Origin: Escherichia coli | GTDB taxonomy: Bacteria; Pseudomonadota; Gammaproteobacteria; Enterobacterales; Enterobacteriaceae | Direction: 5' to 3' (one strand) | DNA: 64,000 nucleotides | NCBI RefSeq assembly: GCF_002854065.1 | Contig: NZ_CP024147.1 | In this document: positions 16,990-21,787 of the stretch, piece after piece | Layout of the letters: every line of letters starts with the position of its first letter | How positions within the stretch are numbered: position 1 is the first letter of the stretch | Made by a program: the position numbers and the translations under genes | Notes under the pieces: model-generated | Seen by the model: only the letters and a program-made list of their open reading frames with translations | Database searches by the model: none | Told to the model about the DNA's origin: nothing

Positions 16990-17105
16990 GACAACCTGCG
17001 CTTTGTTCATGTCAGATGCGGCATGAACGCTTGGTTCGGCCTACAAAGGTTTGTAAATCAGGAGCTTAGTAGGCCTGATAAGCGTAGCGCAGCAGGCAAT
17101 TTCGC
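16990..17105. repeat. REP/BIME-like element between convergent yajQ and yajR
   Basis: Contains GATGCGGCATGAACGC...CGGCCTAC and inverted GTAGGCCTGATAAGCGTAGCGC REP-type sequences. Confidence 0.5.
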
Positions 17106-17112
17106 CTCGCTT

Positions 17113-18477
17113 TTATGCCTGGCGAATTGCCTGTTCAACATCAAAGCGATTCGTCACTTTGCTGTCGATTTTCACATAAGCTGAATGTTCTTCTTCTGCA
17201 ATCAACACTTCTTTGATGCCTTCAGTTTCTAGCAAACGCACTTTTAACGCCTCGTTTGCGGCAATGTTCGCCGGGATTTCAATGCGCAAGCTGCTGACAT
17301 ACGGCGGTTCTTTCATGGTACTGGCGACTGCCAGCCACACTGCGGCCAGCATTGCGCCAGCGAGAAATACGCCCTGACCGTCAAACATGCCGTCAATCCA
17401 GCCGCCCAGTGAACCGCCAATCGCCACGCCAAGAAACTGGCTGGTGGAGTAAACACCCATCGCCGTACCTTTGTAACCTGCTGGCGACTCTTTACTGATA
17501 AGTGAGGGCAGGAGGGCTTCCATCAAATTAAACGCCACAAAGAAAAGCTGCACGCCGACCACCAGTTGCCAGAACTGCGTTTGCGCGTTCCACAACACAA
17601 TTTCCGCAACCACGATCAACCCGACGCAGAAGACAAAGACTTGCTTCATTTTGCGCTTAACTTCAGCGTAGATAATGAAAGGCACGACCGAGCCAAAGGC
17701 GATTAGCATTGTCGCCAGATAGACCTTCCAGTGTTCAGCCGCCGGGAACCCCGCATCAGCCAGTTGTCCGGGCAGGGCAACAAACGTCGACATCAGCAAA
17801 ATATGCAGACACATAATGCCAAAGTTGAGTTTCAGCAGCCGCGGTTCCGCCAGCACTTTACTGAAACTGCCTTTCACCATTCCGGACTCACGATTAAGTA
17901 CGTGAGTGCTACTGTTGGGCACAACCCAAATGGTCAACGCAATGCCGGTCGTTGCCAGAATAGCGATCATCCAGAACAGCGCGTGCAGCCCAAGTTTGTG
18001 AGTGATGATCGGGCCAAGCACCATCGCAATGGCAAAGGTAATGCCAAAGCTCACGCCGATAAACGCCATTGCTTTGGTGCGGTTTTGTTCGCGCGTGAGA
18101 TCGGAAAGCAGCGCCATAACGGCAGCGGCAATCGCACCGGAGCCTTGTAGCGCCCGACCCAGAATAATTCCCCAGATGGAGTCAGAGAGCGCAGCGATAA
18201 CGCTACCGGCGGCAAACACTGCCAGCCCACCGACAATTAATGGTTTGCGACCAATGCGGTCGGAAAGCAGGCCAAACGGAATCTGAAAAACGGCCTGAGT
18301 CAGACCATAAATACCAATGGCAATACCGATTAATGCTTCGCTGGCACCTTGCAGAGCCATGCCGTACGTGGTCAGAACCGGCAGAACCATGAACATGCCC
18401 AGCATGCGCAACGAGAATACGGTCCCTAAACCCCAGGTCGCGCGCCGCTCACCTGGTGTCATTTTATAATCGTTCAT
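17113..18477 (-). CDS. yajR: MFS transporter YajR
   Basis: ORF 17113..18483 begins with GTG; ATG at 18477 gives 454 aa MNDYKMTPGERRATWGLG..., 12-TM MFS topology plus C-terminal cytosolic domain. Confidence 0.9.
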   Translation of the reverse strand: MNDYKMTPGERRATWGLGTVFSLRMLGMFMVLPVLTTYGMALQGASEALIGIAIGIYGLTQAVFQIPFGLLSDRIGRKPLIVGGLAVFAAGSVIAALSDSIWGIILGRALQGSGAIAAAVMALLSDLTREQNRTKAMAFIGVSFGITFAIAMVLGPIITHKLGLHALFWMIAILATTGIALTIWVVPNSSTHVLNRESGMVKGSFSKVLAEPRLLKLNFGIMCLHILLMSTFVALPGQLADAGFPAAEHWKVYLATMLIAFGSVVPFIIYAEVKRKMKQVFVFCVGLIVVAEIVLWNAQTQFWQLVVGVQLFFVAFNLMEALLPSLISKESPAGYKGTAMGVYSTSQFLGVAIGGSLGGWIDGMFDGQGVFLAGAMLAAVWLAVASTMKEPPYVSSLRIEIPANIAANEALKVRLLETEGIKEVLIAEEEHSAYVKIDSKVTNRFDVEQAIRQA

Positions 18478-18883
18478 TACCACCTCTTAAAAAAATGCCC
18501 ACATAGTGTAGTGCGGAGCGCATGTTGGGTAAACAGAGTGTTAATGAGAAAATATTACAGAGGAGAATAATTTGTGTGTCAGGTATGTTTTTTGCATTCA
18601 TAAAATGAATGCTCTATATGTTGAAAAAATGAATTTTAAAGCTAAATAGTTTTACATCAAAAAAATAATAATATCATTTCTTGATTACCATGTGCATTTT
18701 TTATCTTACGAATATGCTAGTTTTATCTTACTAAATAAACGATTTGGTGACATGGATGATAATGTTTCAGGCTAAATGTGTGCTTATTACTTGGGCCTTT
18801 ATGGCACTGTATTTATTCATTAAATGGATGTTTGGTGGTTAATTATTATGGAAGTATATGACAGTGAGGACATAAAGGTATAC

Positions 18884-19819
18884 ATGTTAACTAAAAGAAT
18901 ATTATTTTCTTTAATGCTAATAGTTTCACCAGGCGTGGTGGCAAGCGAGAAAGCGCATGAATTGTATGACAGCATATACGGTGGTCAACCTGCGCCCGAT
19001 GTTATAAATACACTGCATAAAATGGCTGAATTGGGAGATGTCGACGCGCAGAGCCTGTTAGGCTGGGAATATTATCAGCCTCGCTATGATACCAAACCTG
19101 ATGTTCAGGAAGCGATTAAATGGTTCGAGTTAGCCGCTAAACAAGGTGACAGAGAAGCTCCGTTAGCGCTGGGGAGTATCTACTACATCGGTGAGCTGGT
19201 GCGGGTGGATTATGCCAAAGCGTATGCACTATTTAATCAGGCCGCGCAATACGGTGTGAATTTAGCATGGTCCAGGTTGGGCATGATGTACGCCAATGGT
19301 CAGTATGTTGAGGTAGATTGTAAGAAAGCGAAGGAATATCTTGATAAAGGTGTCCACATTTATGGTGGTCCGGAAGACTTTCTGGCTACATGTCGAAAAG
19401 ACATGATTGACAGAAAAACGGTTGACGATACGTTACCCGTGATCACGGTTACCCGTTCTGGGATGCGGGATAATTTTTTAGATAAAGATTTTTCCTGCAT
19501 GGATAGCCTCTTCGCCACCACCAATAAATTAGGCGAAGTGGCCAATCTTCGCGTGACATTCAGCATTCGTAGCCCATCCGGTAAGGAGATTAACCAAACG
19601 GTTGGCTTCGCGCCTTTCGGTTTAAACCGGCTGAATATTAGCTTTACTGATTACATATTTGATTCATTTACCAGTAATTCGTCTCTAATTCTTTATAAAC
19701 CGGAATTTGAGCGAAAATCTTGTGCAACTGTAAGGACCACAATCGTTGCCGCAACGGCAACCATTAACGGCAAGGATGTGGAGTTGCTGAAAGCGGGGGC
19801 AATTGAACAAAAGTGGTAA
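18884..19819 (+). CDS. Secreted Sel1-repeat (TPR-like) protein with uncharacterised C-terminal domain
   Basis: ORF 18824..19819; likely start ATG 18884 preceded by AAAGG RBS, giving Sec-type signal peptide MLTKRILFSLMLIVSPGVVA-SE; three to four Sel1-like units (GDVDAQSLLGWEYY..., AIKWFELAAKQGDREAPLALGSIYYIGE..., AKAYALFNQAAQYGVNLAWSRLGMMYANG...); AT-rich; not in K-12 yajR-cyoE junction by recalled gene order. Confidence 0.7.
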   Translation: MLTKRILFSLMLIVSPGVVASEKAHELYDSIYGGQPAPDVINTLHKMAELGDVDAQSLLGWEYYQPRYDTKPDVQEAIKWFELAAKQGDREAPLALGSIYYIGELVRVDYAKAYALFNQAAQYGVNLAWSRLGMMYANGQYVEVDCKKAKEYLDKGVHIYGGPEDFLATCRKDMIDRKTVDDTLPVITVTRSGMRDNFLDKDFSCMDSLFATTNKLGEVANLRVTFSIRSPSGKEINQTVGFAPFGLNRLNISFTDYIFDSFTSNSSLILYKPEFERKSCATVRTTIVAATATINGKDVELLKAGAIEQKW

Positions 19820-19874
19820 CGCTGCTCAGCCCCCGGCTAAGGCAAAACTTGCCCTGGCGGGTGGCGATAATAAT

Positions 19875-20417
19875 CTAAGCCGCGAGAATATGCTGAATCG
19901 CCAAAAACATAGGTACAGCACCAAAAGCATTTGGTGTCGCTGAAAGCTGAACAAAGCCGAGACGAGCATAAAAGTTAATGGCGGCAGGGTCAGCATCAAG
20001 ATAAACCCCTTTAATTGGTAATGCCTGGTGAATTATTTTTACATGTTCAAAAAAATCACATAGTAGGTCCTGACCAAAGCCCCGCTTTTGATACTTCCGC
20101 GCCACCCCCAACATGACTAATCTGACAACACCAATCTCTGAAGGCTGTGAACCCTGAAGGACGCCAGAAACGCGTTGTTTTTCCAGCGAATATGCCGTAA
20201 AAGTACAGATGCCAATCAGTTCACCACTTTGTCTGTCAATAAGTGCTTTAGCCGCACAGTCGCTATTACGCACACTTTTCTTTAGCGATGTGCGTACAAA
20301 TTTATCGATAACAGGGTTACCGCAATCAAACTGTTTTTGCCCAGGATAAGTAATATCAGACTGATAATTACAGGAGAGGACTATGGGCAGAGTAATCTCT
20401 TCATGCTTGTCGACCAT
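19875..20417 (-). CDS. GNAT-family acetyltransferase, candidate type II toxin (TacT/AtaT/ItaT-like tRNA acetyltransferase class)
   Basis: 180 aa; N-terminal FDCGNPVIDKFV motif; acetyl-CoA pocket-like RKYQKRGFGQDLL; C-terminal INFYARLGF; start overlaps upstream DUF1778-like ORF by 17 bp; AAGGA RBS. Confidence 0.75.
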   Translation of the reverse strand: MVDKHEEITLPIVLSCNYQSDITYPGQKQFDCGNPVIDKFVRTSLKKSVRNSDCAAKALIDRQSGELIGICTFTAYSLEKQRVSGVLQGSQPSEIGVVRLVMLGVARKYQKRGFGQDLLCDFFEHVKIIHQALPIKGVYLDADPAAINFYARLGFVQLSATPNAFGAVPMFLAIQHILAA

Positions 20418-20712
20418 CGCTGTTTTTCCTTTTCATTAACGCCTTGAGTGCGAGCGTCGGTTGAGCAGGTTCGGCGATGAGTTGGTTCATCAGTTCCCAG
20501 CTTTGATTCGAAAGCTCACGGCGACGTTGGTTATCAAGCACGCTTTCGGCGCGTTCCATAGCAGCGCTCAAAATAAAGGCGCTTAAATCTAACCCAACGG
20601 CTTGCGCAGCTTCACGAAGTCTGTTTTTGGCGTCGGGACTGGTTTTGAGTTCAACCCGCGCATTTTTCAGCGTTTTATCGACATCGGGTAGAGTGGCTGT
20701 TTTTCCAGGCAT
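20401..20712 (-). CDS. DUF1778/ribbon-helix-helix-type antitoxin candidate
   Basis: ORF 20401..20778 trimmed to ATG 20712 (MPGKTATLPDVDKTL...) with AGAGGT RBS 7 nt upstream; 104 aa; pattern VELKTSPDAKNRLREAAQAVGLDLSAFILSA typical of antitoxins paired with GNAT toxins. Confidence 0.65.
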   Translation of the reverse strand: MPGKTATLPDVDKTLKNARVELKTSPDAKNRLREAAQAVGLDLSAFILSAAMERAESVLDNQRRRELSNQSWELMNQLIAEPAQPTLALKALMKRKNSDGRQA

Positions 20713-20765
20713 TGTGACCTCTTTGATTAACTGAATGAAATCGTAGGGAGTCGATCTCATACATA

Positions 20766-20784
20766 ATACGGCTATCAACCGTAT
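20766..20784. promoter_or_regulatory. Palindrome 1 ATACGG-N7-CCGTAT (putative antitoxin operator, overlaps transcription start region)
   Basis: ATACGGCTATCAACCGTAT read directly; lies immediately downstream of the putative -10 on the minus strand. Confidence 0.5.
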
Positions 20785-20788
20785 GATT

Positions 20789-20817
20789 AATTTATGTGCA
20801 TCTGCTCACTCTGTCAA
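20789..20817 (-). promoter_or_regulatory. Putative sigma70 promoter of the antitoxin-toxin operon
   Basis: Minus strand reads TTGACA (20817..20812) - 17 bp - TAAATT (20794..20789); perfect -35, 17-bp spacer. Confidence 0.5.
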
Positions 20818-20820
20818 GAG

Positions 20821-20839
20821 ATACGGTTATTAGCCGTAT
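20821..20839. promoter_or_regulatory. Palindrome 2 ATACGG-N7-CCGTAT (putative operator just upstream of -35)
   Basis: ATACGGTTATTAGCCGTAT; same half-sites as palindrome 1, centre-to-centre 55 bp. Confidence 0.5.
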
Positions 20840-20856
20840 CTCTGATCTCAGACAAT

Positions 20857-20882
20857 AAAAAAGGTGCCGTAGCACCTTTTTA
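20857..20882 (-). terminator. Rho-independent terminator downstream of cyoE (end of cyo operon)
   Basis: AAGGTGC-cgta-GCACCTT stem-loop flanked by A/T runs, immediately 3' of cyoE stop. Confidence 0.65.
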
Positions 20883-20896
20883 ATAGAGAGGTTTTG

Positions 20897-21787
20897 TTAC
20901 CACACAGCAGCCAGCAGCGTATGCGAGTCCGGTACCATAAAATCAACGGACATCATCACCGAGAGGGCAGTGATGGCGATGATAGAGAAGCCGAACAGCT
21001 TGCGCGCCCAGATTCTGTCATCAGCAACCTTATAACCGCGCAGGGCCATACCTAACCACCAGACGCTCACCGCCGCGGCGACCACCAGATATTTATATCC
21101 AGCGTAACCGCCAAGAGAGAGCATCAGCGTGGCAACGGCAAAGGCGATGATATACAGCGTGATGTGATTCTTCGCCACCGAAATGCCTTTTACCACTGGC
21201 AATACCGGAATGTTTGCCGCCTGGTAATCCTTAAAGCGGAAAATGGCGATGGCATAGGAGTGAGGCATCTGCCACAGGCTGAAGATAGCCAGCAGGATCG
21301 CTGCGCCGCTATCGAACTCGCCGGTTACTGCACAGTAGCCAATCACCGGCGGCGCAGCGCCGGAGAGCGAACCAATCAATGTGCCGTAGACTGAGTGGCG
21401 TTTCATGTACAGGCTATAAACGCCGACATAAACCACAAAGCCCATCACCCCCAGCCAGCAGGCCAGCGGATTCGCGCCAAACCACAGCAGCATAAAGCCA
21501 GCAATACCCAGCAAGGTGGCGTACACCAGCGAGACAGCAGGAGAGATCAGGCCTTTAACCAGCACCCGATTCTTCGTCCTTTCCATCTTTCTGTCGATAT
21601 CCCTGTCGATGTAGTTGTTAAACACACAACCCGACGCCACAACCAGTGACACCCCAACCAGCGTGTAGATAAACAGGGGATAATCAATGCTGCCCTTTGA
21701 GGCCAGCAGGAATCCCCCAATCACCGAGATCAGGTTGCCAAAGATGATGCCTGGTTTCGTTACTTGCAGGTATTGCTTAAACATCAT
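20897..21787 (-). CDS. cyoE: Protoheme IX farnesyltransferase (heme O synthase)
   Basis: ORF 20897..21832 trimmed to [18 protein letters not shown]... (296 aa). Confidence 0.93.

Follow-up and report, generated by a model that had tools for sequence, protein, structure and literature searches.

How did some 2.4 kb of AT-rich DNA that is absent from Escherichia coli K-12 come to lie between the core genes yajR and cyoE, and what might it do there? We address this in a stretch of 64,000 nucleotides of E. coli contig NZ_CP024147.1 (the whole stretch is referred to here as the window, and coordinates are window positions unless indicated otherwise), in which the entire yajR–cyoE intergenic interval covers positions 18478–20896, or 2419 bp (in RefSeq the yajR start codon is at 18477 and the cyoE stop at 20897). 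A first-pass annotation made from the sequence alone had described this interval as an insert with an unclear acquisition mechanism, and this description is not supported, as cassettes are found at the same site in relatives and their synonymous divergence (dS) is in step with that of the flanking genes. We consider the interval very probably to be a long-resident accessory cassette of two modules at a variable intergenic site, and not a recent insertion. Module 1 (18564–19819) would consist of an AT-rich regulatory leader plus sel311, predicted to encode a Sec-exported Sel1-like repeat (SLR) solenoid fused to an IrmA-like beta-sandwich of immunoglobulin (Ig)/fibronectin type III (FnIII) type, and module 2 (19875–20853) is the characterised type II toxin–antitoxin (TA) operon itaRT, with ItaT as the toxin and ItaR as the antitoxin.

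Orthologous cassettes at the yajR–cyoE site

In Escherichia albertii the yajR–cyoE locus is collinear with window positions 17000–19803 at 89% identity, including the AT-rich leader, and encodes Sel311 followed by a 325-aa secreted open reading frame (ORF), with no TA pair. Escherichia sp. E4385 has a 499-aa Sel1 paralog (Sel499), Sel311, itaT and itaR; Shigella boydii has the same arrangement with Sel499 frameshifted and itaT decayed; and Escherichia sp. MOD1-EC7003 has Sel311, remnants and a truncated M20 amidohydrolase. A Pseudocitrobacter metagenome-assembled genome carries, abutting cyoE, Sel499-like and Sel311-like proteins (the latter 59% identical), ItaT (91% amino acid identity) and ItaR (91%), with CyoE itself at 93%, and a related enterobacterial metagenome contig has Sel478, Sel308, a truncated itaT and itaR between yajR and cyoE. 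The Sel499 and Sel311 paralogs are approximately 32% identical over their C-terminal 260 residues.

Nei–Gojobori (NG86) estimates of dS and of the ratio of non-synonymous to synonymous divergence (dN/dS) were obtained for the cassette genes and their core neighbours. Against E. albertii, dS is 0.39 for sel311, compared with 0.27 for yajR, 0.26 for cyoE and 0.58 for panE, and against the Pseudocitrobacter-type loci it is 0.47–0.64 for itaR and 1.2 or saturated for itaT, compared with 0.69–0.83 for cyoE and 1.41 for yajR. The dN/dS ratios are 0.12–0.27 for sel311 between species (0.53 within E. coli, where there are few changes), 0.05–0.20 for itaT and 0.10–0.28 for itaR. Synonymous divergence in step with the flanks, together with low dN/dS, argues for a long-resident cassette under purifying selection and not for a recent arrival.

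The non-coding DNA at the cyoE side, which combines the cyoE terminator with an operator and promoter region, is also orthologous across genera. The intrinsic terminator hairpin of cyoE (20858–20881, minus strand) is common to K-12 and forms the right edge of the variable region, and the 184-bp itaR–cyoE spacer includes the itaRT control region (20766–20839, minus strand), in which two palindromes of the form ATACGG-N7-CCGTAT (20821–20839 and 20766–20784) bracket a sigma-70-like promoter (-35 TTGACA at 20817–20812 and -10 TAAATT at 20794–20789). The Pseudocitrobacter orthologs keep the terminator hairpin with a stem that has changed in sequence but still pairs, and their spacers keep both palindromes and the -35 element while the sequence between has diverged. 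The retention of the palindromes amid diverged non-coding DNA across genera supports their role as operators, and we regard both as most likely to be the predicted binding sites of the ItaR–ItaT complex.

Two of the loci carry other genes at the TA position. The E. albertii 325-aa ORF (positions 6048–7025 of locus L004, and also present in L005), which has a signal-peptide-like N-terminus and no Pfam or NCBIfam family, replaces itaRT, and the MOD1-EC7003 ORF (positions 4812–5759 of locus L010) is a 5'-truncated M20 amidohydrolase gene, which may explain why the neighbouring Sel1 protein is named a zinc-dependent hydrolase in some UniProt entries.

Borders, composition and distribution in E. 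coli

The interval is flanked on the left by yajR (17113–18477, minus strand; encoding a major facilitator superfamily transporter, with a dS of 0.056 to K-12) and on the right by cyoE (20897–21787, minus strand; encoding heme o synthase), as annotated in RefSeq. As the first-pass annotation had stated, the two genes adjoin in K-12 with no extra genes between them, and in MG1655 the spacer is 148 bp. Homology to K-12 continues at approximately 98% up to position 18486, is then strongly diverged yet alignable to 18563, and restarts sharply at 20854 in the A-tract of the cyoE terminator, so that the net difference is an islet of approximately 2290 bp (about 18564–20853) in place of approximately 17 bp.

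The atypical, AT-rich composition claimed for the interval is borne out by our figures, as the net islet has a GC content of 42.8% compared with 50.5% for the window, and GC at third codon positions (GC3) is 0.38–0.46 for the three cassette genes compared with 0.60–0.70 for yajR and cyoCDE. By gene, GC content is 44.4% for sel311, 43.8% for itaT and 50.3% for itaR. A 55-bp spacer of 60% GC separates the convergent sel311 and itaT (19820–19874) and contains a hairpin with an energy no better than that of shuffled sequence (z = -1.2).

The lack of an integrase, tRNA gene or insertion sequence (IS) at the borders also stands: no integrase or IS ORF was found, a tRNA scan of 10 kb on either side of the interval found none, and direct or inverted repeats flanking the interval are chance-level matches only. 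We therefore rejected an integrase- or IS-mediated genomic island, there being no integrase, transposase, tRNA/attachment (att) site or flanking direct repeats. An Rfam scan of 18300–21100 at E <= 1 returned no family, PADLOC gave no model match of meaningful score for any of the three proteins, NCBIfam gave sub-threshold matches only for all three, and in the literature we found no description of a yajR–cyoE Sel1 locus.

The interval is confirmed as accessory and missing from K-12. Of the 5426 complete E. coli genomes, 1367 have at least 80% of its length, among them BL21 derivatives, SE11, O104:H4 and O111:H8, and K-12, O157:H7 and CFT073 have the short spacer; the non-carriers show one common short junction, and E. 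coli proper thus has essentially two alleles and one common junction. The islet allele in the window is the rarer form (18 genomes are at least 99% identical to it, with most carriers at approximately 97.6%). Sel499 paralog DNA is absent from all 5426 genomes, and DNA of the E. albertii-type 325-aa cargo occurs in one (NZ_CP074749). In over 1300 genomes the three genes already have RefSeq annotations.

Whole-cassette matches in the plasmid collection amounted to three records (CP061270.1, NZ_OL790696.1 and CP099174.1), and since these are 1.2–4.8 Mb in length they are chromosome-sized sequences labelled as plasmids. True plasmids of Citrobacter freundii, Serratia and Rahnella carry distant itaRT-like pairs only (65–72% nucleotide identity).

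We also noted that decay of the Sel1 gene and itaT is recurrent in E. coli and Shigella (NZ_CM128593, NZ_CM169499, NZ_CP081881 and loci L097/L098). A 91-bp deletion with a frameshift in sel311 is common to several strains, S. sonnei has partial Sel1 proteins, and S. boydii combines the frameshifted Sel499 gene with an itaT fragment only, beside an intact itaR. In two other strains, IS1 and ISVsa5 within or beside the Sel1 gene are secondary insertions.

Variable cargo and allele classes

A survey of other genera started from YajR homologs. In Salmonella enterica the occupied allele consists of two Sel1 genes of approximately 490–500 codons with no TA pair, and the empty allele is a 220-bp spacer with repeats resembling repetitive extragenic palindromic (REP) sequences. 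Citrobacter farmeri has an empty allele and also an allele with a DUF1493 gene and an STM2901-family (DUF8209) gene, and members of the C. freundii complex have two DUF1493 genes between yajR and cyoE. The spacer thus behaves as a variable-cargo site across the Enterobacteriaceae, with contents that would be exchanged by recombination.

The yajR-proximal upstream segment (18478–18563, minus strand) is present in every allele when the occupied and empty alleles are aligned. These approximately 85 bp beside yajR are nearly invariant among the Sel1-occupied alleles of E. coli, the cryptic clades, E. albertii and the Pseudocitrobacter-type contig, yet the K-12 empty allele (positions 1679–1766 of locus L001) differs by approximately 40%, with 57% identity over about 80 bp, even though the adjoining genes on the yajR and cyoE sides have a dS of only about 0.05 between K-12 and the window. 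The first-pass annotation had the native yajR upstream region replaced or displaced, and this holds insofar as the K-12 allele is so different there, but the segment itself is kept in both alleles; the accompanying suggestion of a possible change in yajR regulation is reasonable, with the proximal region diverged and not displaced. The K-12 and window alleles have two blocks in common, TAGTGTA and GGGTAAAC, which may be yajR promoter elements. On the minus strand they read as TTTACC-N17-TACACT, a weak promoter-like pair that falls below the promoter-scan threshold.

This segment has 16 informative columns, and K-12 shares the state of the Salmonella and C. farmeri empty alleles at 10 of them and that of the Sel1-type alleles at 4; the occupied allele of Salmonella Cerro groups with the Sel1-type by 9:5. 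The contrast between this spacer divergence and the gene dS, together with the likeness of empty alleles across genera, suggests that the K-12 empty allele did not arise simply by a recent deletion from the occupied allele of E. coli.

The ItaR–ItaT toxin–antitoxin pair

The first-pass annotation was correct in recognising an antitoxin and a GNAT toxin, and missed that the pair matches the experimentally characterised itaRT. The toxin gene itaT (19875–20417, minus strand) encodes a 180-aa protein with Pfam GNAT domains, assigned as an aminoacyl-tRNA N-acetyltransferase (PMC6125619, PMC7367177, PMC9177977), and itaR (20401–20712, minus strand) encodes a 103-aa antitoxin of the ribbon–helix–helix (RHH)/TacA (DUF1778) family (PMC6125619) which matches Pfam TacA1 (E = 2.8e-17) and the KacA and AtaR structures; the itaR stop overlaps the itaT start by 17 nt. 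The toxin is identical to the ItaT(G115D) structure from E. coli HS (PDB 7BYY) at 178 of 180 residues (phmmer E = 1.6e-117). G115D is an engineered substitution that inactivates ItaT for crystallisation (PMC7367177), and since this is one of the two differences, the match to the natural HS protein is 179 of 180, with T43 here in place of A43 as the sole natural difference. The acetyl-CoA loop (Q/RxxGxG/A) is intact as KYQKRGFGQD with G115, and the catalytic Tyr150 is present (the roles of the loop residues and Y150 are described in PMC7367177). Judged on this identity, the pair is the already characterised ItaR–ItaT system, the HS locus in another strain and no new system.

In HS, ItaT is toxic and ItaR neutralises it in a tight complex; a promoter within the 172 bp that precede itaR is repressed by the ItaR–ItaT complex but not by ItaR on its own (PMC6125619). 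In vivo, ItaT chiefly targets Ile-tRNA(GAU) and ribosomes pause at AUU and AUC codons; the action of the toxin is opposed by Pth (PMC9177977). Toxicity, aminoacyl-tRNA acetylation and neutralisation have been demonstrated for the HS proteins, from which this allele differs by one residue. Acting on charged elongator tRNAs (in vivo mainly Ile-tRNA(GAU)), the predicted ItaT would transfer the acetyl group of acetyl-CoA to the alpha-amino group, so that elongation stalls; ItaR would bind and neutralise it, and the ItaR–ItaT complex would repress the operon promoter, most likely through the two palindromes.

Sel311 and the AT-rich leader

All three genes listed in the first-pass annotation are present, with a correction to the start of the Sel1 gene, which had been implied to lie at 18824. 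We assign sel311 to 18884–19819 (plus strand; 311 aa), following the RefSeq annotation and a start conserved across species. We rejected the longer ORF from 18824, which is not conserved and is interrupted by stop codons in E. albertii; the N-terminus resembling a signal peptide starts at 18884. This N-terminus, MLTKRILFSLMLIVSPGVVA/SEK, has n-, h- and c-regions that are conserved in the family, and from it we predict that Sel311 is exported (Sec); the conserved cysteines (C146, C170, C205 and C280) fit an exported protein. A periplasmic or secreted location is usual for bacterial SLR proteins.

Pfam identifies three Sel1 repeats (PF08238) in residues 54–155 and nothing in the C-terminal 150 residues. 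The AlphaFold model, built from 29 sequences, has a mean predicted local distance difference test (pLDDT) score of 84.8 and a predicted template modelling (pTM) score of 0.82, and consists of a disordered N-terminal signal-like segment, a helical solenoid from about residue 20 to 180 and a beta-sandwich at 187–310. When the N-terminal half was compared with the PDB using Foldseek, it matched Oxalobacter Sel1 proteins, LpnE, SEL1L, LceB, EsiB/c5321, HcpC and AlgK, with the top matches all SLR structures, and the C-terminal half matched IrmA and ApaG. The C-terminal domain is also fused to Sel1 repeats in Salmonella, Pectobacterium, E. fergusonii, Morganella and Proteus.

It should be noted that the contig profile search for relatives was dominated by generic Sel1 repeats with few full-length matches, and that E. 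albertii was missed in it. Among the matches listed, the full-length family is found in Escherichia and a few Enterobacterales, and includes E. coli alleles (85–95% identity), the cryptic Escherichia clades (82–87%), E. albertii (82%), Pseudocitrobacter-type proteins (approximately 60%), and those of Pectobacterium and Affinibrenneria (approximately 40%). Sel311 belongs to a known class of proteins but is itself uncharacterised, and a periplasmic or surface protein-binding adaptor is our working inference for its role. It represents a conserved Sel1 plus Ig-like family that is predicted to be exported and that occurs in B strains (BL21 derivatives) and many B1 pathogens.

The AT-rich leader upstream of sel311 (18564–18883, plus strand) is absent from K-12 and has a GC content of 27.8% (30.5% for the whole of 18478–18883). 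Conservation peaks at both ends, in the yajR-proximal 100 bp and in a block of about 90 nt (18755–18846, plus strand) that is 84–96% identical to E. albertii and E4385, and the middle has diverged in E4385. The conservation of this block exceeds that of synonymous sites, and it therefore probably serves as promoter or 5' untranslated region (UTR) for the Sel1 gene or genes. RNAalifold gave an unfavourable covariation term and a single compensated pair for the block, and so did not support a structured RNA. The leader contains small ORFs, which were rejected as genes on inspection of the alignment, as their reading frames are not conserved. The same leader precedes Sel499 in E4385 and S. boydii, and in the window, where Sel499 is missing, it is joined to sel311 by 37 bp (18847–18883) that are common to E. 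albertii and MOD1-EC7003.

Judged on its composition (28% GC), binding and silencing of the leader by H-NS is plausible. A motif scan found no enrichment in the leader and no exact copy there of the H-NS high-affinity 10-mer TCGATAAATT; the one exact copy in the 64-kb window, where approximately 0.1 would be expected by chance, is inside itaT (20299–20308, minus strand).

Origin of the cassette

We infer the following history for the locus. The cassette would have been at yajR–cyoE before the split between Escherichia and Pseudocitrobacter-like bacteria, originally with the 499-aa Sel1 paralog, which the lineage of the window would since have lost, and the K-12-type E. coli (approximately 75% of genomes) would hold an empty allele. 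The resulting presence/absence polymorphism would have spread by homologous recombination in the flanking core genes, a route that would leave no mobility genes or repeats. The same-site relatives, matched dS and orthologous junction make loss or allele replacement in K-12-type strains the more likely polarity.

Several points weigh against this account. The composition of the cassette looks foreign, and low GC3 normally argues for relatively recent acquisition, so that under ancient residence something must hold the AT-richness. Polarity is based on about ten outgroup loci and not on a full ancestral-state reconstruction, and since the site is empty in many genomes of Salmonella and Citrobacter, the cassette might have been gained early and then passed between genera by way of the flanking homology. 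The clustering of the yajR-proximal segment by allele type uses 16 informative columns only. The 37 bp joining leader and sel311 have no counterpart in the two-gene Sel1 form, and there is no clean deletion between the two forms. Finally, itaRT-like pairs are found alone on Citrobacter plasmids (72% nucleotide identity), and the TA pair could therefore have joined the Sel1 module separately.

If the cassette were instead a foreign 2.3-kb AT-rich islet, inserted recently into an ancestrally empty spacer in some E. coli lineages and silenced by H-NS, its GC and GC3 below those of the flanks, its absence from K-12, O157:H7, CFT073 and about 75% of genomes, and the related TA pairs on plasmids would all be expected. 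However, orthologous cassettes with the same junctions in E. albertii, the cryptic clades, S. boydii and Pseudocitrobacter-type genomes would not, nor would a cassette dS that equals flank dS at all depths; furthermore, there is no integrase, IS, tRNA, target duplication or terminal repeat, and no plasmid or phage copy of the whole cassette, given the size of the three records labelled as plasmids. A recent insertion is highly improbable, and synteny and co-divergence largely refute it. The divergence beside yajR raises a different possibility, which would refine our account and does not contradict it, namely that the occupied and empty forms are ancient haplotypes that predate the Escherichia/Salmonella/Citrobacter split and have persisted side by side, or moved between genera through recombination in the flanks, with the K-12 allele a separate old lineage possibly kept by balancing selection. 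The 57% identity between K-12 and the window next to genes with dS of about 0.05, the grouping of K-12 with empty alleles and of Salmonella Cerro with Sel1-type alleles, and the polymorphism within Salmonella and C. farmeri themselves all point this way. On the other hand, the segment is very short with few informative sites, and the same pattern could arise by parallel change if the regulatory constraint on it depends on whether a divergent Sel1 promoter is present; we regard such trans-species allele classes as a serious candidate, at somewhat below an even chance.

The two modules might also form a functional unit, with itaRT protecting or regulating the Sel1 gene as an addiction or anti-phage module, or with the whole islet a defence island. 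They adjoin, in convergent orientation, in E. coli, E4385, S. boydii and the Pseudocitrobacter-type genomes, and it is reported as general background that TA modules can stabilise unstable loci and cause phage infections to abort (PMC6125619). Nevertheless, each is found without the other (Sel311 with no TA pair in E. albertii and MOD1-EC7003, and TA pairs with no Sel1 genes on Citrobacter plasmids), itaT is decayed beside an intact Sel1 gene in S. boydii and in one Pseudocitrobacter-type locus, and PADLOC gave no meaningful match for the three proteins, which makes such a unit improbable. Only slightly less doubtful is a composite of these ideas, in which an old trans-genus polymorphism has its own yajR-upstream region in each haplotype, the secreted EsiB-like/IrmA-like fusion is a host or envelope factor under balancing selection with itaRT as its addiction module, and AT-richness is maintained for H-NS-dependent regulation.

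A long-resident cassette at a variable site is therefore the reading we prefer. This suggests that recent insertion should not be the automatic reading of AT-rich DNA which is absent from K-12 and has no mobility genes, as here such DNA appears to have diverged together with the neighbouring core genes from a time before the genus arose, and it is K-12 that would carry the odd allele at yajR–cyoE.

A second AT-rich stretch in the window

We note that positions 7201–9200 form a more extreme AT-rich stretch (29–41% GC) between pgpA (6578–7093) and yajO (9097–10071), two genes which we take to be adjacent in K-12. It contains an ORF of 531 aa (7271–8866, minus strand) with a pentapeptide-repeat middle and a weak, far sub-threshold likeness to the type III effectors PipB2 and PipB (E = 5e-7, 29 bits compared with a cutoff of 354), which may be another accessory gene.

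Comparison with known systems

Classical genomic islands and integrative elements are likewise strain-variable AT-rich DNA amid core genes, but the yajR–cyoE cassette differs from them in having no integrase, tRNA target, IS, direct repeats or plasmid or phage counterpart, and in co-diverging with its flanks. The N-terminal half of Sel311 shares the SLR alpha-solenoid of EsiB (c5321), HcpC, LpnE, LceB and AlgK (Foldseek E = 2e-7 to 7e-6; EsiB, PDB 4BWR, is 36% identical over 115 columns), though it has only about four repeats and adds a C-terminal beta-sandwich which those proteins lack. This C-terminal domain has a possible likeness to the interleukin receptor mimic protein A (IrmA) of uropathogenic E. 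coli (PDB 5EK5), at 17% identity and with no detectable sequence-family link, and in the model the likeness is of fold only, with IrmA a stand-alone domain and its Sel311 counterpart fused. The EsiB and IrmA fold matches can be taken as leads on the role of Sel311.

The closest known system is ItaRT of E. coli HS (Wilcox et al. 2018, PMC6125619; Zhang et al. 2020, PMC7367177), with which the pair in the window shares operon order, gene overlap, a 103-aa antitoxin (11.4 kDa class) and the upstream promoter region. TacAT of Salmonella, AtaRT of E. coli O157:H7 and KacAT of Klebsiella (PDB 5FVJ, 6AJM and 5XUN/5ZGN) have the same fold, antitoxin family and aminoacyl-tRNA N-acetylation chemistry, but their sequence similarity to the window pair is only remote (E = 1e-5 to 1e-9), and the preferred tRNA also differs, being that for Gly in the case of TacT, Met or a broad range for AtaT, and Ile for ItaT (PMC9177977).

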